A stretch of 44,784 bases of DNA from Escherichia phage TL-2011b. Location: sequence record JQ011317. One strand, given 5' to 3'. The translations under genes and the position numbers were made by a program. This document shows positions 5,172-35,560 of the stretch, one piece after another. Positions within the stretch are counted from its first letter, which is position 1, and each line of letters begins with the position of its first letter. The notes below the pieces were generated by a model, which was given only the letters and a program-made list of their open reading frames with translations, searched no databases and had not been told where the DNA came from.

Positions 5172-5248
5172 TTACCGTTTAGGTAATGATTATGCGTATC
5201 TGGTTTGATGTCAATAGATATGAGTTAAAAAAATTACCTGTAAGGTAA
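5172..5248 (-). promoter_or_regulatory. Leftward early promoter (pL-like) with two TTACC-N5-GGTAA operator-like sites
   Basis: Minus-strand -35 TTGACA (5214-5209) and -10 TAATCA (5192-5187); palindromes at 5234-5248 (upstream of -35) and 5172-5186 (at the start site). Confidence 0.5.
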
Positions 5249-5305: not shown

Positions 5306-5890
5306 TTATTGTTTGCTTTTTTCGTTCTGGCTGATGACAAATTCAATGTAACTTTCGATCTTTGCCTTCTCTGTTTCAGGTAACAATGCGTAGCGCGAGC
5401 GGTCATAGTTGATAGTTGCAGGGTCATGCGGGTGAATCAGTAGTTCATATCCGTGACGCCCGAATGCTGATGCAACATTCTCCAGGGTGGAAATGGAAAC
5501 GCTGACCTCATTGTTTAACAGGCGGCTAATTGTCACCTGGGCGACGCCGGATGCGCGGTGAAGTTTTCCCTGTGTTGAAAGGTCGCGGCTTTCGCTCATC
5601 CAGCGTTCCAGGTTGTGAGCCGCCAGCTGACCAATGTCGCTTGGTCCGACAGGCTGAACCCCCTCCTGAGAAAGCGAGCGATCGATATCAAGCCAGTTAC
5701 GGGGTTTATTGGCGGCAGCTTCAATTTTTCGCGCAACCTGGTCGCCGATAACCTTCTTGCCAAGAGCCCAGCGGTTTACCAGATTTGCCTGAGTTCCAAG
5801 TTTTTCTGCCATCCGCGTCTGAACACCATTGAATTCACGGTCGATCAAGTCGTTGAGATTTTGCCTGCGGACGTCCTGGATACTTTTCAT
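5306..5890 (-). CDS. Prophage repressor (CI-like), two HTH domains, no S24 peptidase domain
   Basis: 194 aa; divergent from the cro-like gene across a 154-bp operator region; two HTH-like segments; no Ser/Lys autocleavage module; no Shine-Dalgarno before ATG. Confidence 0.6.
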   Translation of the reverse strand: MKSIQDVRRQNLNDLIDREFNGVQTRMAEKLGTQANLVNRWALGKKVIGDQVARKIEAAANKPRNWLDIDRSLSQEGVQPVGPSDIGQLAAHNLERWMSESRDLSTQGKLHRASGVAQVTISRLLNNEVSVSISTLENVASAFGRHGYELLIHPHDPATINYDRSRYALLPETEKAKIESYIEFVISQNEKSKQ

Positions 5891-5945: not shown

Positions 5946-6019
5946 TTACCCAACAGGTAAATGCACCCCATAGGTAACTATCCTTGATTTTTGTTACCTT
6001 ATGGGTGAATATTTATTAT
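5946..6019. promoter_or_regulatory. Immunity-region operator/promoter (pR-like)
   Basis: TTACCCAACAGGTAA at 5946-5960; inverted repeat CCCATAGGTAAC ... GTTACCTTATGGG (5966-6006) over -35 TTGTTA (5991-5996); -10 TATTAT (6014-6019). Confidence 0.5.
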
Positions 6020-8226: not shown

Positions 8227-8303
8227 TTACCTGATGGGTAACAAAATATTCTTATATCTATTGATTTTGTGCCTTATGTGGTTTTTAATTACCTTAGAGG
8301 TAA
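8227..8303 (+). promoter_or_regulatory. Promoter with two TTACC-N5-GGTAA sites upstream of the DUF1064-like gene
   Basis: Sites at 8227-8241 and 8289-8303; -35 TTGATT (8261-8266), -10 TTTAAT (8284-8289); second site overlaps the start site and RBS. Confidence 0.45.
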
Positions 8304-10831: not shown

Positions 10832-11172
10832 TGGACTATTCACAGTTAAGTGATTTTGAAATTAACAGAATGGTAGGAGACATAATTTTTAAAGGCCTTT
10901 GGGCATGTAAACCGGAAACATCAGGGAATAACACCAACAAATGGTATTACGGAAATGCTGATACAACTTTTGAGCCATTAACCCCTTTACCTGACTACTG
11001 CAATGATCCGATCGCTTCATGGCCGATTATTGAGAAATACAGGATTTCTATCTTAGACCAGTTAACTGAATGGTGTGTGGATGCAAAAGACGTAAGACCA
11101 ATATTTGATACCAGACCTCTCCGCGCCGCCATGATTGTATTTCTCATGATGCAGGAAAATCAGAATGGCTAA
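10831..11172 (+). CDS. Hypothetical phage protein (113 aa)
   Basis: ATG at 10831 overlapping the upstream stop (GTGATGG). Confidence 0.45.
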
Positions 11173-11503
11173 ATCAGCAGCAGAGCGCAAAGCCGCTCAG
11201 AGAGCCAGACAAGCTGCATCTGGTGTGCGTAAGATGGAGATTGTGCTTGATGCTCAGGAAATTGAAATGCTAGAGCGTAACTGTGCCACGCGTCGCCCCG
11301 GGCGTGCGCCTTACGAATTTGGTGAGTATATAGCGTCACTGATCCGCCAGGATGATGCACGCGTGCGCGGGCGTATAAAATCGATCAGCAGAAAACGTTG
11401 CGGTAAGTGCGGCGAGAGAGTTCCAGTTAATTCATGCCCGTGCAATGGTGACTCGCAATGCTGGGTGACTAAAGGCTGGCATGAAACGAAATTAATAGTG
11501 TGA
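11165..11503 (+). CDS. Basic protein with C-terminal zinc ribbon; candidate late-gene regulator
   Basis: 112 aa; Lys/Arg-rich N-terminus; C-terminal CGKCG...CPC; last gene before the terminator preceding terminase. Confidence 0.4.
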
Positions 11504-11511
11504 CATGTCAC
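11500..11511. repeat. Perfect 12-bp palindrome GTGACATGTCAC (copy 1)
   Basis: Overlaps the stop codon at 11501-11503; identical palindrome at 32282-32293. Confidence 0.6.
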
Positions 11512-11552
11512 GAGTAGATTATGCATGATGAATTTGATGTGTTTTGAATACT

Positions 11553-11578
11553 GCCGCCAACTATGGCGGCTTTATTTT
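11553..11578 (+). terminator. Rho-independent terminator upstream of the terminase genes
   Basis: Stem GCCGCC / GGCGGC, loop AACTAT, then TTTATTTT. Confidence 0.65.
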
Positions 11579-11589
11579 GCATGGTACTA

Positions 11590-11622
11590 TTACCACAATG
11601 GTAACTATTACCACGGTGGTTA
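11590..11622 (+). promoter_or_regulatory. Tandem TTACC-N5-GGTAA-type sites before the small terminase gene
   Basis: TTACCACAATGGTAA (11590-11604) and TTACCACGGTGGTTA (11608-11622); direct repeat ACTATTACCAC. Confidence 0.4.
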
Positions 11623-12218
11623 TGATGCCTGCTGAACCTAAAACCTATAAACGCAAATCAACGCAATTTAAGCCACTAACAGCAATGCAGGAGGCTTATT
11701 GCCAGTCATACATCAAAACGCCTGAAAACCAGACTCAGGCAGCGATTAACGCAGGATTCTCCCCAAATACAGCGGCAGTTAAAGCCAGTGTAATGATGCG
11801 CGATGAACGTATTCAAAAACGGATTGCCGAGTTGATGGAGGAGCGCAACAAACGAATGCGCGTCAGTGCTGATTACGTTCTCATGCGCCTGGTGGAGATC
11901 GACCAGATGGACGTGATCGACATCCTCAACGACGATGGGAGCCTTAAGCCAATCCGCGAGTGGCCGAAAATCTGGCGCACTACGCTTAGCGGCTTTGATC
12001 TGTCATCGACCATCATGAACATGAACGAGGATTCGATAGAGACAATCCTCAAAAAAATTAAATGGCCTGACAAGGTGAAGAACCTCGAACTGATTGGTAA
12101 GCACGTCGACGTCAACGCATTCAAAGAACGCTTGGATGTTAATGTGAATGTGACAATTGCTGATCGCATAGCAGCAGCCAGGAAGCGACTCAAAGAACGT
12201 CAGGATGGCAATCAGTGA
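11622..12218 (+). CDS. Terminase small subunit
   Basis: Block INAGFSPNTAAVKASVMMRDERIQKRIAEL typical of small terminase; directly upstream of the large subunit. Confidence 0.7.
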   Translation: MMPAEPKTYKRKSTQFKPLTAMQEAYCQSYIKTPENQTQAAINAGFSPNTAAVKASVMMRDERIQKRIAELMEERNKRMRVSADYVLMRLVEIDQMDVIDILNDDGSLKPIREWPKIWRTTLSGFDLSSTIMNMNEDSIETILKKIKWPDKVKNLELIGKHVDVNAFKERLDVNVNVTIADRIAAARKRLKERQDGNQ

Positions 12219-13690
12219 CAGATACAGCGTTATCTCCTGAAGAGCAGTTAATCGAGGATATTGCAGGGTTCACTCACGATCCGCTTGGCTATGCCCTCTA
12301 TGCGTTCCCTTGGGGGGAAGAGGGGACTGAACTGGCACATGCCACCGGTCCACGTAAGTGGCAGGCTGATGCGTTCCGAGAGATACGTGATCACCTGCAG
12401 AATCCAGAGACGCGCTATCAGCCGCTTATGCTGGCACGTGCTTCGGGTCACGGCATTGGTAAATCCGCATTCATCTCAATGCTGATCAACTGGGGCATGT
12501 CCACTTGCGAGGATTGTAAGGTCGTGGTGACCGCCAACACCGACAACCAGCTACGAACGAAGACCTGGCCGGAAATTATCAAGTGGTCAAACCTTGCTAT
12601 CACGAAAGACTGGTTTACCTGTACAGCTACCGCGATGTACAGCAATGACCCTGGGCACGACAAGCGGTGGCGAGCTGACGCAATCCCCTGGTCTGAGCAC
12701 AACACTGAGGCATTCGCCGGACTACACAACGAGCGCAAACGCATCATCGTGGTATTCGATGAAGCGTCGAACATTGCCGATCTGGTGTGGGAGGTAGCAG
12801 AGGGTGCGCTTACGGACGAAGACACTGAGATTATCTGGGTGGCGTTCGGAAACCCGACGCGTAACACCGGGCGTTTCCGCGAATGTTTCCGCAAATATAA
12901 ACACCGCTGGAAAACTGCGCAGATTGACAGCCGGACGGTGGAAGGCACTAACAAACAGCAGTTGCAGAAATGGGTTGATGACTACGGGGAAGACAGCGAC
13001 TTCGTTAAAATCCGTGTGCGCGGCATATTCCCTGATGCATCTGAATTGCAGTTTATCCCTACCGGCCTTACTGACGAGGCAATGAAACGGGTGGTCACCG
13101 CTGCGCAGGTTGCACATGCTCCGGTGATAATCGGTGTTGACCCAGCATATTCAGGCGTTGATGACGCGGTGATATACCTGCGGCAGGGGCTACACAGTAA
13201 GGTGCTGTGGACTGGCAACAAGACTACCGACGATCTGATTATGGCGAAGCGTATCGCTGACTTTGAAGACCAGTATCAGGCTGACGCGGTGTTCATCGAC
13301 TTCGGTTACGGAACCGGTTTGAAGTCAATCGGTGATGGCTGGGGACGTACATGGCAACTTGTTCCGTTCGGCGGTGCGTCCACTGACCCGCAGATGCTTA
13401 ACAAGCGCGGGGAGATGTTCAACTCATGTAAGACATGGCTGAGGCTGGGCGGCATGCTGGATGACCAGGAAACTGCAGACGACCTGTCGGCGGCAGAGTA
13501 CAAAGTTCGTGTGGACGGTAAAATCGTTATCGAACCGAAGGAAGATATCAAGGAGCGGCTTGGGCGTTCTCCGGGTAAAGGCGATGCGCTACTGCTGACG
13601 TTTGCTTTCCCGGTCTCGAAACGCATAAATATACCAGGACAGCAAAGCCAGCAGGGAAGGGCCATAACGGATTATGACCCTTATGCTTAA
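12215..13690 (+). CDS. Terminase large subunit
   Basis: 491 aa, GTG start overlapping terS stop; Walker A-like ARASGHGIGKS. Confidence 0.85.
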   Translation: MTDTALSPEEQLIEDIAGFTHDPLGYALYAFPWGEEGTELAHATGPRKWQADAFREIRDHLQNPETRYQPLMLARASGHGIGKSAFISMLINWGMSTCEDCKVVVTANTDNQLRTKTWPEIIKWSNLAITKDWFTCTATAMYSNDPGHDKRWRADAIPWSEHNTEAFAGLHNERKRIIVVFDEASNIADLVWEVAEGALTDEDTEIIWVAFGNPTRNTGRFRECFRKYKHRWKTAQIDSRTVEGTNKQQLQKWVDDYGEDSDFVKIRVRGIFPDASELQFIPTGLTDEAMKRVVTAAQVAHAPVIIGVDPAYSGVDDAVIYLRQGLHSKVLWTGNKTTDDLIMAKRIADFEDQYQADAVFIDFGYGTGLKSIGDGWGRTWQLVPFGGASTDPQMLNKRGEMFNSCKTWLRLGGMLDDQETADDLSAAEYKVRVDGKIVIEPKEDIKERLGRSPGKGDALLLTFAFPVSKRINIPGQQSQQGRAITDYDPYA

Positions 13691-13739: not shown

Positions 13740-13770
13740 AAGCCCGCGCATTTGGCGGGCTTTATTTTTA
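13740..13770. terminator. Bidirectional terminator between terminase and the antisense moron
   Basis: Stem AAGCCCGC / GCGGGCTT with 7-nt loop, A-run before and T-run after; preceded by palindrome TATCCTC-TGAT-GAGGATA at 13717-13734. Confidence 0.65.
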
Positions 13771-13775
13771 AATAA

Positions 13776-14123
13776 TTATTTCTTGATAATATTTCCAGAC
13801 ATTGTGCTGGCGTTTCCACCAACAGTTTCGCAGATTACATCTCCAGACATGGTGTTTACATTTCCCAATACATTGGAACAATGGACATCACCAGACATAG
13901 TTTTCACATAATGTGCATCACCGCTTACAGTCACTGATCCATTTTCAATCTCAACACCTTCCACGCTTCCATTAATTGTTACGTTAATCTGTCCGTCAAG
14001 ATTGCTATTTTTTTCGACACCATCAACGATCACTTTTCCATTGTTAATCGTAATATGATGACCAGTGAAGTCTTCTCCGTTGACGCTAACGCTAGCACCA
14101 CGTACGTTATTGATTTTAATCAT
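13776..14123 (-). CDS. Bactofilin-like beta-helix repeat protein (115 aa), moron
   Basis: Repeats of the TMSGDV / G-x-V-x-G type; strong AGAGGA Shine-Dalgarno; antisense to the late operon. Confidence 0.45.
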   Translation of the reverse strand: MIKINNVRGASVSVNGEDFTGHHITINNGKVIVDGVEKNSNLDGQINVTINGSVEGVEIENGSVTVSGDAHYVKTMSGDVHCSNVLGNVNTMSGDVICETVGGNASTMSGNIIKK

Positions 14124-14231
14124 TATAAATCATCCTCTTTTTGAATCGAGATTAACCTCAGGAGATACTATGACATGTTTTTCATGTATGTCGTAATCTG
14201 CATCGATATCATAATTGTGACGTATCACGCC

Positions 14232-14419: not shown

Positions 14420-14496
14420 TGGCGTGGCATGCAGGATTCGAACCTGCGACCAACCGCTTAGAAGGCGGTTGCTCTGTCCAACTGAGCTAATGCCAC
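14420..14496 (-). tRNA. tRNA-Arg (anticodon UCU)
   Basis: 77-nt cloverleaf folded by hand: acceptor GTGGCAT/ATGCCAC, D-stem GCTC/GAGC, anticodon stem ACCGC/GCGGT with loop CTTCTAA, T-arm GCAGG-TTCGAATC-CCTGC, encoded CCA. Confidence 0.85.
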
Positions 14497-29852: not shown

Positions 29853-30416
29853 TTAGCATGATTCAGGGGAAACCCCAATATTAAATATGAGTGACTCCCC
29901 TGAATCAGCATAATAATGTAATATTATTGACTTACGTTGTTTTCTTGCTTCGTAGAATAAACGCTCTTGCGGCGATAATTTGTGAAAACTGCCGGATGCA
30001 CAATATATGTTTTTTAACTTTTCGCGGGTTTCTTTTATTGTATCTTCTGATATGTATTTTAGGTATTTATCCGTATAGATGTTGCTACTATAAGAAATTA
30101 ATGTTTTGCTGTTGTTGTGATGTATTGTATTTTTATCGTTGAAGTCTGTATTTTTATTTACTGTCATTAGGTTTTTAATGATTACATGTAATACAATAGT
30201 CTCCCCATCATCAATTCCATATTTGATGTCATAGTCAGTATATTTATTTGTTATACCGCTTCCTGATAGCGGCACTATGTACTCTGAGAAAAATGAGTTT
30301 GCCGCGTGACCATCAAGAGCAATAGCAGTTTTTTTGTGGTAAAAATAAAACAATATTGAGAGAGTCAAAATAATAGCGACGCCTAATGCAACCTTTAATA
30401 TAGATATGGTTTTCAA
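29853..30416 (-). CDS. Membrane-anchored protein, low GC; candidate superinfection-exclusion protein
   Basis: TTG start at 30416 with AAGGAG Shine-Dalgarno (alternative ATG 30443); N-terminal TM helix; same strand and position as sieA next to mnt in P22. Confidence 0.45.
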   Translation of the reverse strand: MKTISILKVALGVAIILTLSILFYFYHKKTAIALDGHAANSFFSEYIVPLSGSGITNKYTDYDIKYGIDDGETIVLHVIIKNLMTVNKNTDFNDKNTIHHNNSKTLISYSSNIYTDKYLKYISEDTIKETREKLKNIYCASGSFHKLSPQERLFYEARKQRKSIILHYYADSGESLIFNIGVSPESC

Positions 30417-30506
30417 AATATCGCTCCTTGTTGTAACATACATCAGTAATGTGGCGTTTTTCAATTGTATTAAAGACGTGTAATATGTACACGCCTTTTG
30501 TTCTTC

Positions 30507-30995: not shown

Positions 30996-31044
30996 TTGAC
31001 ATCAATGACGCACGGTGTGACAATTATTTTGCCCCACGGTGGGG
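30996..31044 (+). promoter_or_regulatory. Pant-like promoter with Omnt-like palindrome
   Basis: -35 TTGACA (30996-31001), 17-bp spacer, -10 GACAAT (31019-31024); palindrome CCCCACGGTGGGG at 31032-31044 (core CCACGGTGG as in P22 Omnt). Confidence 0.55.
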
Positions 31045-31059
31045 CTAAGGAGATATGAA

Positions 31060-31227
31060 ATGCAAAAAGCAAAAGAGATGTGTCAACGACGAGTTCGTTT
31101 TCCGGACGATGTGAAGTTAGCTATTGAAAGAAATGGCGAAAAAGAATGCCGAAAGTTCAATACAGAGATTATCTATCAGCTGAGGAAAGTGTATGGACTC
31201 ACTGGTGAGAAGAATAGCGTGGCATAA
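31060..31227 (+). CDS. Arc-like ribbon-helix-helix repressor (55 aa)
   Basis: ATG at 31060 with AAGGAG Shine-Dalgarno; RVRFPDDVKLAIERNGE ... NTEIIYQL resembles P22 Arc. Confidence 0.55.
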   Translation: MQKAKEMCQRRVRFPDDVKLAIERNGEKECRKFNTEIIYQLRKVYGLTGEKNSVA

Positions 31228-31237
31228 AACAGCGAAG

Positions 31238-31250
31238 CCCCACGGTGGCC
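31238..31250. promoter_or_regulatory. Second Omnt-like palindrome between the arc-like and ant genes
   Basis: CCCCACGGTGGCC with core CCACGGTGG; flanked by inverted repeat GAAGCCC / GGGCTTC. Confidence 0.45.
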
Positions 31251-31299
31251 AGACCGTCAGGGCTTCAGTATCGTAAAACTACGTATAGGAATTAACGAC

Positions 31300-32244
31300 A
31301 TGACGAGTATAGCAACAGCGGTATCTACTATCAACGTGCCATTCCACGGCGCAGAGCTTTATGTTGTCAATCATAACGGCGAACCATACACCCCAATGAA
31401 ACCAGTCGTTGAAGGTATGGGGCTGGACTGGAAAACGCAGTTCCGCAAGTTGCAACAACGCTTTAAGAGCTGCATGGTCGAAATGACCATTCAGCTCCCC
31501 GGTGATACTCAGCGTCGTCTGGTTATCTGTCTTGCTTTACGCAAACTTGCAGGTTGGCTGCAAACCATCAGCCCTAACAAAGTCCGCCCTGAAATCCGCG
31601 ACAAGGTAATCCAGTATCAGGAAGAGTGTGACGATGTGCTCTACGAGTACTGGACTAAAGGCCATGTGGTTAACCCACGCAAAGCTAAAAAGGCGTTGCC
31701 GGGTAAAATAACAACTGAACAGCAGGAAGCCATTAAACAACTCGTCATGAGTCGCGGTCAGTCTCTGCCAAAAGAAAAACAGGCTAAGGCGATGATCACC
31801 ATGTGGTCGTCACTGAAATCTCATTTTGGCTGTTCGTACAAAGAAATTGGTGAAGATCAATTTGCCGAAGCGTTGTCTCTTGTTGCTCGGGTTCCGCTTG
31901 AAGGGGAGTATCTCCCTGCTGGATCTGCATCAGAGAATGATGAAGTGGCAGTCAAGATGTTAGATGCGCTTCGTGAGGCAATTAAAACACAGACAAAATG
32001 TTATGGTTATCCATTGAAGCCCGGCTACCGCAGTCTGATTCATTCTCCGTCTGGTGTTCTCGGTCTGACGGAGAACTCACTGCTGATGAATCTGCTGAAC
32101 CAGTTACAGGAAGACGGGCACGATGTATCGGGCGCGGCGGCGGAGCTGACCACCATGTTCTGTTACATCGTTGGTGTGAGCAAATGCCTGCGTGATATCC
32201 AGACGCACGCGGAGTACATCAACGACAAGGCAGGGTTCTTCTGA
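31300..32244 (+). CDS. Anti-repressor (Ant) family protein 1
   Basis: 314 aa; N-terminal antirepressor-type domain (INVPFHGAELYVVNHNGEPY); C-terminal 77 aa identical to the second Ant protein. Confidence 0.65.
   Translation: MTSIATAVSTINVPFHGAELYVVNHNGEPYTPMKPVVEGMGLDWKTQFRKLQQRFKSCMVEMTIQLPGDTQRRLVICLALRKLAGWLQTISPNKVRPEIRDKVIQYQEECDDVLYEYWTKGHVVNPRKAKKALPGKITTEQQEAIKQLVMSRGQSLPKEKQAKAMITMWSSLKSHFGCSYKEIGEDQFAEALSLVARVPLEGEYLPAGSASENDEVAVKMLDALREAIKTQTKCYGYPLKPGYRSLIHSPSGVLGLTENSLLMNLLNQLQEDGHDVSGAAAELTTMFCYIVGVSKCLRDIQTHAEYINDKAGFF
32008..32244. repeat. Inverted repeat arm A (3' end of ant1)
   Basis: Reverse complement is about 97% identical to 33420-33656 (3 mismatches in the first 84 bp compared by hand). 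Confidence 0.7.
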
Positions 32245-32281
32245 CGGGCGGCGGCACAGGGATGTGCAAAACGAAACTATC

Positions 32282-32293
32282 GTGACATGTCAC
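32282..32293. repeat. Perfect 12-bp palindrome GTGACATGTCAC (copy 2)
   Basis: Identical to 11500-11511; 14-bp extended versions are reverse complements of each other. Confidence 0.6.
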
Positions 32294-32294
32294 A

Positions 32295-32320
32295 GGCCGC
32301 TTTCGCGGCCTTGTTCTTTT
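32295..32320 (+). terminator. Rho-independent terminator after ant1
   Basis: Stem GGCCGC / GCGGCC, loop TTTC, then TTGTTCTTTT. Confidence 0.65.
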
Positions 32321-33332: not shown

Positions 33333-33347
33333 TTACCCTTGAGGTAA
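33333..33347. promoter_or_regulatory. TTACC-N5-GGTAA site in the promoter of the toxin-antitoxin-like operon
   Basis: TTACCCTTGAGGTAA. Confidence 0.45.
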
Positions 33348-33419: not shown

Positions 33420-33656
33420 TCAGAAGAACCCTGCTTTGTCGTTGATGTACTCCGCGTGCGTCTGGATATCACGCAGGCATTTGCTCACACCGACGATGTA
33501 GCAGAACATGGTGGTCAGCTCCGCCGCCGCGCCCGATACGTCGTGCCCGTCTTCCTGTAACTGGTTCAGCAGATTCATCAGCAGTGAGTTCTCCGTCAGG
33601 CCGAGAACACCAGACGGCGAGTGAATCAGGCTGCGGTAGCCTGGCTTCAGCGGGGC
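33420..33656. repeat. Inverted repeat arm B (3' end of ant2)
   Basis: See arm A at 32008-32244. Confidence 0.7.
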
Positions 33657-34115
33657 GCTGTAGGTTTTGTTCTCTATCTTCATCGCCTGCATCACTGCTG
33701 ACGCCGTGGCGTTGGCTACCTGGTCGGCAACCATCTTTATGCGTTCTTCCTGCGGGAGCGAGTTTTTAATGTAACTTCCGGTGCGGCGGATCTGAGGAAG
33801 AACCTCACCTGTAACCCATTTACGAAAGCGGTAGGGGATAGTGCCTGGTGTCACCGCATCGCGGCAGCGGAGGATCAGTGTGTAGAGGCCTGACTCGGAG
33901 ATGATGATCGATTCTTGCTCACCGCCAGGGGTGTCGGTTGAAGCGACGCCCTTCTCATCATCATCAAGTTTTCGAACAGCATCTCGATGGTTTGCTATGC
34001 CTATAGCCCGACAAACATCTGAAGCGATAAACCATGGCTCACCATTAATGACGATTACCCGTATATCGGCTTGGGATTCGAAAGAAAAAATGGACGTGCT
34101 TTTTGTAGCTGTCAT
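33420..34115 (-). CDS. Anti-repressor (Ant/Bro-N) family protein 2
   Basis: 231 aa; Bro-N-like N-terminus (VIVINGEPWFIASDVCRAIGI); C-terminal 77 aa identical to ant1. Confidence 0.7.
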   Translation of the reverse strand: MTATKSTSIFSFESQADIRVIVINGEPWFIASDVCRAIGIANHRDAVRKLDDDEKGVASTDTPGGEQESIIISESGLYTLILRCRDAVTPGTIPYRFRKWVTGEVLPQIRRTGSYIKNSLPQEERIKMVADQVANATASAVMQAMKIENKTYSAPLKPGYRSLIHSPSGVLGLTENSLLMNLLNQLQEDGHDVSGAAAELTTMFCYIVGVSKCLRDIQTHAEYINDKAGFF

Positions 34116-35538: not shown

Positions 35539-35560
35539 TAACTGTATAAATATACAGTAG
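35539..35560. promoter_or_regulatory. LexA (SOS) box
   Basis: AACTGTATAAATATACAGTA: CTGT-N8-ACAG with AT-rich spacer, close to the LexA consensus. Confidence 0.75.

Follow-up and report, generated by a model that had tools for sequence, protein, structure and literature searches.

The repressor Rep of Salmonella phage SPC32H binds palindromic sites as a tetramer (PMC9638917). Arc and Mnt of P22 and the other ribbon-helix-helix (RHH) repressors are small dimeric proteins of mobile elements with short palindromic sites, in operators that overlap promoters. MatP, the RHH protein of the E. coli Ter macrodomain, binds matS, GTGACRNYGTCAC (PMC6907758). The lambda-type Q antiterminators and the P2/P4 late activators Ogr/Delta are encoded where the early region ends and the packaging or late genes follow, and the C4 zinc-finger proteins of the TraR/DksA type bind RNA polymerase. 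Here, we compare these systems with a locus of Escherichia phage TL-2011b (record JQ011317; the whole stretch of 44,784 nucleotides is called the window), in which a gene for a 112-aa protein is followed by the palindrome GTGAC-NN-GTCAC (PAL), a terminator (T1), and the small terminase gene terS. The locus is best explained as the junction of two transcription units, both under master repressor control. Our explanation has three parts, namely, a terS promoter controlled by Rep, the pairing of the 112-aa protein with PAL, and a role of this pair at the boundaries of transcription units; we give the three taken together a probability of about 0.5. The part concerning the predicted terS promoter and its Rep operators is strongly supported by sequence comparison.

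The closest genome match and the phage matches identified the prophage as one of the epsilon15/phiV10 type (genus Uetakevirus), integrated beside guaA. The matches share a gene order of integrase, leftward early genes, repressor, rightward replication and nin-like genes, NinX, the 112-aa gene, terS, terL, and virion genes, and the segment 11100-11700 was matched in 1,122 of 5,426 complete E. coli genomes. The original prediction, made from the window's letters alone, had described the site as the entry to the late/packaging operon, with a basic protein carrying a C-terminal Cys cluster, a palindrome over its stop codon, a terminator, and two tandem TTACC-N5-GGTAA-type sites overlapping the terS start. 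All of these features were found at the positions given in Table 1 and are far above chance: the open reading frame (ORF) and composition of the protein agree with the description, the rightward early operon gives way here to the packaging operon, whose genes terS (Terminase_2) and terL lie downstream, and T1 was recovered both by a terminator scan and by folding. The palindrome is real, repeated, and nonrandom, since the 12-mer GTGACATGTCAC was found three times in the window with at most one mismatch (0.08 expected; 0 of 100 shuffles). Its second exact copy lies directly before a terminator (32294-32311 plus a T run), and the 14-bp versions of the two copies (T-PAL-G at the first and C-PAL-A at the second) are reverse complements, in opposite orientation, as had been noted.

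The sites in front of terS belong to a large set. The window contains 14 copies of TTACC-N5-GGTAA (10 exact and 4 with one mismatch), when 0.60 were expected and none of 100 shuffles reached this number. Those at 5172, 5234, 5946, and 5994 lie on both sides of the rep gene, those at 8227 and 8289 precede the nin-like genes, those at 33333, 34385, 34478, and 35597 are in the anti-repressor region, and those at 11590 (O1) and 11608 (O2) stand before terS. Of the two further copies, at 135 and 14819, the latter has a -10-like flank directed leftward, to a tRNA-Arg/moron island; one operator of the set is upstream of the integrase gene. A degenerate neighbor, GCACCCCATAGGTAA at 5964, was read by eye from the sequence next to OR (5946). 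The Rep protein of the window matched SPC32H Rep (PDB 5D50) over its full length (E = 3.2e-41). In the RefSeq record of epsilon15, the orthologous site just 5' of terS (12-27) is annotated as "protein_bind: repressor," and the ATTACC-N5-GGTAAT sites adjoining the repressor gene are likewise annotated as repressor binding. The motif is present at equivalent positions in epsilon15-like loci of several genera and absent at the loci of the 112-aa gene in other phage types. The spacing of 18 bp between O1 and O2 is also that of paired exact operators in Rahnella-type loci. The window sites are the same motif as those annotated in epsilon15, including the one before terS, and they are palindromic and often paired, which fits a tetrameric repressor; we found no essential difference from the SPC32H/epsilon15 system, of which the terS motif is an ordinary member. 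By this comparison, the tandem sites are operators of an SPC32H/epsilon15-type Rep, which would bind O1 and O2. The terS operators are already known, being annotated in epsilon15. The original prediction had linked the tandem motif to activation, a view at odds with its recurrence around the rep gene and with the epsilon15 annotation of the terS-proximal copy as a repressor binding site. The terS motif was also tried as a repeated late-promoter element and was rejected, with no recurrence as such elsewhere in the window.

A candidate promoter had been missed. No canonical -35/-10 pair was found between 11578 and 11622 by a consensus scan, in agreement with the original prediction, but a scan for two hexamers is blind to extended -10 promoters, and a conserved extended -10, TGGTACTAT, lies at 11582-11590. 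The pattern TG-n-TA..AT was kept in 10 of the 11 listed terS-proximal variants, with changes only at positions 3 and 4 of the hexamer (TGGTACTAT, TGTTACTAT, TGGTATTAT, TGATAGTAT, TGTTAGTAT, and TGTTATGAT). The variants that carry it come from E. coli, Salmonella, Klebsiella, Enterobacter, Superficieibacter, Pseudocitrobacter, Citrobacter, and Rahnella, and in the Samsonia locus a TG-n-TATGAT lies further downstream. The final T of the hexamer is the first T of O1. The operator at 8227 carries TATAAT in the identical register, and by our own reading of the table 9 of the 11 listed operators (the exact copies and O2) have a same-register flank hexamer with at least four of six matches and A at position 2, for a background of 6.7% per flank. 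Both the fusion of the -10 to the operator and the set of 14 sites were read from sequence alone. Since a conserved TG-n-TAnnAT is fused to the operator, terS-terL probably has its own Rep-repressed promoter. The two genes would then form an operon of their own that is probably silenced directly by Rep in the lysogen, making a Q or Ogr factor, or readthrough of T1, unnecessary. The original prediction had favored readthrough or activation in the absence of a promoter between 11578 and 11622; a candidate promoter, which by the prediction's own terms speaks against it, is now found there in silico, and its extended -10, fused to the operator, is kept whether T1 or an unrelated gene precedes it.

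O2 overlaps the Shine-Dalgarno (SD) sequence GGTGG (11615-11619) and the first ATG (11622) of terS, whose second ATG is at 11625. In the lysogen, Rep on O1 and O2 would cover promoter, start site, and ribosome-binding site, so that the packaging operon would be silent; upon induction, the promoter would be freed with no requirement for a Q- or Ogr-type factor. An RNA hairpin at 11579-11632 (-23.2 kcal/mol, z = -4.2) would make the SD and AUG of terS inaccessible in transcripts that read through T1, while leaving them exposed in those started at about 11597. This hairpin is largely a by-product of two tandem palindromic operators, and we do not rely on it.

Other ways of relating PAL to the transcription of terS were tried and rejected. 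The half GTGACA, read as a -35 and paired with CATGAT, scores 9 of 12 in the window, yet the other variants have no conserved -10. Taking PAL as a class I/II activator site for terS, rejected as the main explanation, meets with few independent classes of distance, and the presence of an additional gene in some alleles (gene X, see below) pushes the distance beyond 300 bp. The distance between PAL and the terS promoter otherwise ranges from about 58 to about 90 bp, and the values from the PAL center to the hexamer (58.5, 59.5, 61.5, 78.5-80.5, and 90.5 bp) are roughly in helical phase.

The 112-aa protein belongs to a family of 151 clusters at 50% identity, with homologs in epsilon15 (gp49), phiV10 (p55), and N15 (gp46). 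Its PHROG match is 536 ("transcriptional regulator"); no Pfam family covers it, and none of the sources searched gives it a functional name. It has 23 K+R and 13 D+E (own count), and its cysteines are at 40, 79, 82, 91, 93, and 99, with C79, C82, C91/93, and C99 in the C-terminal cluster. The alignment of 51 diverse members revealed a basic N-terminal helix (R8 and R13), a PY...EY motif, invariant C79 and C82, and a near-invariant C99. In the AF2/AlphaFold model (predicted local distance difference test score of 91), a beta-alpha-alpha, RHH core follows the basic N-terminal helix, and the structural neighbors are the RHH proteins Arc, Mnt, CopG, ParD, TacA, and TraM. A fold search in BFVD returned only a 46-aa fragment of the same family, PADLOC gave no defense-system match for the protein or for gene X, and the papers on the structures of ZX5 and epsilon15 do not mention the protein. 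The comparative evidence supports a dimeric RHH protein that would bind DNA and that combines a basic N-terminal helix with a zinc module; a plausible DNA-binding regulator is also what the original prediction had seen in it. It resembles Arc, Mnt, and their relatives in size, in its putative dimeric fold, and in the short palindrome that it would bind. It differs from them by the zinc module and the N-terminal basic helix, and by the position of its sites, since their operators overlap promoters while its probable main site is at the 3' end of its own gene and the others lie beside terminators.

The association of PAL with this family was evident in loci fetched via the 112-aa protein alone (21 genomic loci from different species and 4 phage records; 217 kb). 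GTGAC-NN-GTCAC occurs 32 times in these 217 kb, when the mean over the 1,024 palindromes of that form is 0.26 and the runner-up reaches 7. Of its copies, 15 are at the stop of the family gene, 4 at 3 to 8 nt after it, and 3 at 81 to 226 nt downstream. PAL was found at or beside this stop across Enterobacterales, both in phages of the epsilon15-like and N15-like groups and in Pectobacterium phage ZF40. It persists off the stop codon when the reading frame ends earlier or later, and it persists whether the downstream sequence is T1 and terS, a umuD-like gene under LexA control, a different terminator, or the SD of some other gene. The half-sites are invariant, with AT, CT, AC, AG, TG, CG, or CC as the two central bases. 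In N15-type phage-plasmids, PAL is present in 49 of 49 loci, at the gp46 stop, 12 nt upstream of gene 47, and within repA. Of 61 loci in P2-like prophages, 57 have PAL, and there two imperfect sites and a perfect one, about 33 bp apart, form an array that follows the early operon and precedes a cargo island. Three sites are present in Vibrio phage K308, whose family protein has only 29% identity, and the start codon of terS lies 19 nt after one of them. Within the P2-like and Vibrio phages, PAL sits within a few kilobases of the family gene. Four unrelated phage backbones thus carry the site with the family, and each phage genome has one PAL at the 3' end of the family gene and one to three elsewhere.

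Further copies of the palindrome, which the original prediction had proposed to seek in relatives, therefore exist in epsilon15-like, N15-like, P2-like, and Vibrio phages; its link of the palindrome to terS was not sustained, since PAL stays at the end of the regulator gene when other genes replace terS. Because PAL follows the family gene and not terS, and because its half-sites are invariant, the pattern is that of a dimeric DNA-binding protein and its operator. GTGAC-NN-GTCAC is probably the operator of the 112-aa protein. The palindrome was not found in any paper of the literature searched, and the protein/palindrome pair is undescribed in the searchable literature and databases. Several observations concern the site itself. 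The phiV10 reference genome is linearized inside the palindrome and has a mutated copy (…CATGTTAC), and a few other isolates have single-base changes in the copy at the stop of the 112-aa gene (PAL1). In G+C-rich viral contigs (L045, L064, L074, L079, L093, and L131), PAL occurs among many GTGAC/GTCAC half-sites in an iteron-like arrangement, with no family gene in the stored stretch. In P2-like loci (L201-L261; e.g., L126, 1217-1300), the three phased PAL-like sites are close to a cos-like stretch (own reading), and the cargo beyond the array, next to the portal gene, differs from locus to locus.

A different use of the same letters would be an RNA element, in which a GUGACAUGUCAC hairpin is bound by the arginine-rich N terminus of the protein and controls translation of the next gene or folding of the terminator. 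PAL does lie inside transcripts in most contexts examined, often abuts an SD or a terminator stem, and the N-terminal helix is rich in arginine. The stem has only 4 bp, however, and its strict invariance, with no compensatory changes, together with the DNA-binding RHH fold and the phasing of about 33 bp in P2-like arrays, which would set the sites on one face of duplex DNA, makes this very improbable.

As a DNA operator, PAL resembles matS. The inverted half-sites of the two, GTGAC and GTCAC, are identical, both proteins have the RHH fold and a basic helix just before the beta-strand, and both have few sites scattered over the replicon. The center of matS has 3 bp (13-bp GTGAC-RNY-GTCAC), whereas that of PAL has 2 bp, the site being 12 bp in all subfamilies; the 3-bp form showed no enrichment in the phage loci. 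No homology of the 112-aa protein to MatP was detected (hhalign probability of 0.45%). MatP has a four-helix bundle and a coiled coil without counterpart in the 112-aa protein, which has the Cys cluster instead, and it is a host-encoded system, unlike the phage-encoded protein with its sites at the ends of operons.

The surroundings of PAL1 were clarified by its alleles. T1 is formed by GCCGCCAACTATGGCGGC and TTTATTTTG (7-bp G+C stem and 4-nt loop), and its counterpart in epsilon15 carries a terminator annotation. Among 80 contigs with identical terS, about one-third carry between PAL and T1 a 70-aa gene X (MPKIRYDLEDMRDNSAN...DEFDGL), with PAL 9 nt before its start codon (e.g., L265, 1211-1423). 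The remaining alleles, including that of the window, have only the last X codons, seen as the remnant ORF MHDEFDVF, and PAL1 is intact in about 47 of 50 alleles without X (own count). PAL1 is thus close to T1 because gene X was deleted and not as a designed composite; the 41-bp spacer between palindrome and terminator is, on the evidence of these alleles, the deletion scar of X. An Rfam search of 11000-12000 gave only a subthreshold match to rseX (29 bits versus 50; E = 0.25), which was rejected. Other alleles (L006, L007, L012, L345, L346, and many IMG/VR loci) have TTGACT-17-TATACT, overlapped by a LexA box, 6 to 7 bp after PAL and then a umuD-like gene, together a predicted SOS-inducible cassette inserted between the regulator gene and terS.

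Elsewhere, PAL is found at terminators and beside variable cargo. The second copy in the window, PAL2, lies 37 nt after the stop of the anti-repressor gene, and the terminator that it abuts (T2, AGGCCGCTTTCGCGGCCT and TGTTCTTTT) has no U-run for minus-strand transcripts, which meet PAL2 instead. In relatives, PAL after ant or other cargo is directly 5' of AGGCCGC-N4-GCGGCCT and a T run, as at 32282; at least eight unrelated sequences abut the outer edge of PAL in this unit of palindrome and terminator, which is present in many relatives. After terL, relatives have a hairpin, GATT, and PAL, followed at a distance of 4 nt by the stop codon of a cargo gene on the minus strand; PAL is thus just 5' of a minus-strand terminator, and at least six cargo sequences are so placed. 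At this junction, the window allele has no PAL and a symmetric terminator with U-runs on both strands, whereas in PAL-bearing relatives the U-run is on the minus strand only and PAL is on the other side. Variable cargo abuts PAL at three hotspots. A scan of viral contigs with the 14-mer recovered 120 stretches, 46 of which encode the family gene within the stored part, and 41 of 128 sites are at its stop. Among 255 distinct contexts, which are nonindependent and in many cases homologous, a terminator lies within 45 nt 3' of PAL in 74 (at 0 to 4 nt in 36) and 5' of it in 18. Some copies are in coding regions; these, including those in Q-type genes (MRDMSQ... and ...SVTCHSC...), are probably chance matches amplified by the relatedness of the contigs.

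The terL-portal interval of the window holds a minus-strand island with a 115-aa repeat protein (13776-14123, minus strand; PHROG 3163) and a tRNA-Arg(UCU) (14420-14496, minus strand), closed toward terL by a perfectly bidirectional terminator (13741-13775); in relatives, the junction holds different cargo together with a copy of PAL. At 14217, beside a minus-strand terminator, the window has a degenerate PAL, GTGACGTATCAC.

Such positions could also mean that PAL is a conserved linker at module borders, serving cargo exchange by recombination or the binding of a host factor, and that its linkage to the 112-aa gene is incidental. The diversity of the cargo that abuts PAL at the ant hotspot and after terL, where the cargo stop codon is 4 nt away, the RecT/RecE-type recombinases encoded by these phages, and the matS-like half-sites fit this idea. 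Yet homologous recombination needs more than 12 bp, the half-sites are invariably 2 bp apart and never 3 bp as in matS, invariant half-sites around a free center are the signature of a dimeric DNA binder, and the site accompanies the family through four unrelated backbones, down to 29% protein identity. We regard the linker as improbable.

We favor another role for the protein on PAL, that of a bidirectional boundary element (roadblock or insulator), which is the most likely one but unproven. It is favored because the sites are symmetric, lie at the ends of tandem or convergent transcription units, and flank hairpins on the side without a U-run. The 112-aa protein would be made once Rep is inactivated and, on symmetric PAL sites at the ends of transcription units, would act as a roadblock in both directions. 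It would thereby back up the terminators, so that transcription of the early operon, the ant module, and the cargo is kept out of neighboring modules, with PAL placed on the opposite side of hairpins that have a one-sided U-run. The broader proposal, which we put forward as tentative, is that the 112-aa family and GTGAC-NN-GTCAC constitute a dedicated phage transcription boundary system that insulates mosaic modules during lytic growth, common to epsilon15-like, N15-like, P2-like, and Vibrio siphovirus lineages. It would stop polymerases arriving from either side or, less likely, license them.

Several points weigh against this role. PAL is 9 to 19 nt before a start codon, without a terminator, at N15 gene 47, gene X, and K308 terS, which fits a repressor or translational operator equally well. 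A symmetric roadblock after terL would stop late transcripts heading to the portal gene, for which no promoter was identified. A stalled polymerase halts upstream of the roadblock, and the geometry beside hairpins is not obviously favorable. The C terminus has a weak likeness to the RNA polymerase-binding zinc fingers of TraR/DksA, which an antiterminator would fit better. To these we add the nonindependence of the 255 contexts and, for the Rep part, the fact that the operator consensus is based on the epsilon15 annotation and the distribution of the motif.

The most conservative alternative is a plain repressor of the adjacent downstream gene or, more generally, an ordinary regulator of initiation, repressor or activator, acting on whatever gene follows each PAL, be it gene X, the umuD-like gene under LexA control, gene 47 of N15, or terS of K308; in the window, where gene X has been lost, PAL1 would be a leftover operator. 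The copies 9 to 19 nt before start codons in several phages, those 6 to 7 bp upstream of the -35 of the LexA-controlled promoter in many loci, the three-site array of P2-like prophages, typical of cooperative operators, and the deletion scar in the window all agree with it. It would have to account for downstream genes that are mutually unrelated, for the many PALs that follow a gene and are themselves followed only by a terminator, with no initiation to control, and for the persistence of PAL1 in the alleles that have lost gene X; on balance, we find it unlikely.

Still less probable to us is a Q-like, site-loaded antiterminator, by which the protein bound to PAL would modify the passing RNA polymerase and allow readthrough of T1 into terS and of T2 toward tailspike and lysis genes. 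Terminators are found four times as often 3' of PAL as 5' of it in the counts above, islands and terminators interrupt the late genes, and in epsilon15-like phages, ZF40, and K308 the gene closes the early operon, with late or lysis genes next to it. The position is that of Q and Ogr/Delta, which share with the 112-aa protein a small size, a Cys cluster, and a DNA site next to their own gene with a terminator downstream. Family and fold differ, though: the 112-aa protein has no Pfam match to Q or Ogr/Delta, neither family is among the best 25 of 37 families (E ≤ 1) for the 51 members, and the modeled fold is RHH, whereas the original prediction had proposed a comparison with Q-like and Ogr/Delta-like regulators. 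No conserved promoter is tied to PAL, whose distance to terS varies. A Q-type site inside a constitutive late promoter was not recovered (no -10 at a fixed distance from PAL across variants), nor were Ogr/Delta-like sites at about -55 of late promoters, since the P2-like prophages have a single PAL array that is not at their late promoters.

The likeness to TraR and YbiI is weak, no more than a lead. Residues 47 to 107 (helix and CxxCGxxxP...C) align with TraR 6 to 66, with E values of 0.04 to 0.08 for the profile against PDB and an hhalign probability of 77%. The fourth Cys of C-x2-C-x17-C-x2-C is absent, C91 lies in between, and zf-dskA_traR is not among the best 25 of 37 Pfam families (E ≤ 1) for the 51 members. 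The aligned helix is helix B of the RHH core, which is buried in the dimer and cannot reach the secondary channel as the TraR helix does. An antiterminator would be unneeded at terS, which probably has its own conserved repressor-controlled promoter downstream of T1, it would drive antisense transcripts into terL or its neighbors from the sites after terL and cargo, and it does not suit K308 and other loci that place PAL after the terminator or directly before a start codon. N15-type phages already have a Q-type late activator, gp40, which coexists with the family member.

Table 1. Positions of the main features in the window
Feature	Coordinates	Strand	Remarks
112-aa protein gene	11165-11503	+	Last gene of the Rep-controlled rightward operon
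PAL1, GTGACATGTCAC	11500-11511		Contains TGA stop 11501-11503; probable operator of the 112-aa protein
Gene X deletion scar	11512-11552	+	Remnant ORF 11521-11547
T1, intrinsic terminator	11553-11578	+	Scan and folding; ends the rightward early/nin-like operon
Candidate extended -10 of terS, TGgTACTAT	11582-11590	+	Predicted transcription start at ~11597
Rep operator O1, TTACCACAATGGTAA, perfect	11590-11604		Predicted; orthologous epsilon15 site annotated
Rep operator O2, TTACCACGGTGGTTA, 1 mismatch	11608-11622		Predicted; 18 bp from O1
terS, Terminase_2 small terminase	11625-12218	+	ATG 11622 is an alternative start
terL	12215-13690	+	After terS
Rep, master repressor	5306-5890	-	Homology to PDB 5D50
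Anti-repressor gene	31300-32244	+	PHROG Ant
PAL2, second exact copy	32282-32293		Between the anti-repressor gene and its terminator
T2, intrinsic terminator	32294-32320	+	Scan, folding; directly abuts PAL2

Other features of the window were noted in passing. PAL2 and T2 close a module resembling P22 immI (30996-32320), which also comprises a strong promoter (TTGACA-17-GACAAT with TG), an Arc-like RHH ORF of 56 aa (31061-31228, upstream of ant and below the 60-aa ORF filter), and the anti-repressor gene. A second anti-repressor gene is on the minus strand (33420-34115), with a perfect LexA box, CTGTATAAATATACAG, further upstream on that strand (35542-35557), an arrangement that resembles the SOS-controlled Ant of SPC32H. 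The AT-rich gene at 29853-30464 (minus strand) has a faint TIR/ThsB-like match (PADLOC; E = 0.006) and is possibly defense cargo.

The genome-wide set of operators suggests a flat, P1-like repressor network and not a cascade. A single repressor appears to control the early, nin-like, and packaging operons and the anti-repressor region by sitting on their promoters, unlike the late-activator cascade of lambda-style phages, and this scheme predicts that the packaging genes are turned on as soon as Rep is inactivated. For the 112-aa protein, the theme is that of an RHH regulator with an unusual position of its sites and a wide spread among phages: a small family without Pfam entry or published function now has a sharply defined DNA site in at least four lineages of temperate phages, placed at terminators and at the borders of cargo (moron and defense) hotspots. 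If the protein only represses a few accessory genes, it would be an ordinary regulator whose sites are unusually positioned. If it is a boundary element, it would represent a new kind of transcription control in phages and would help explain why their mosaic modules do not interfere with each other.

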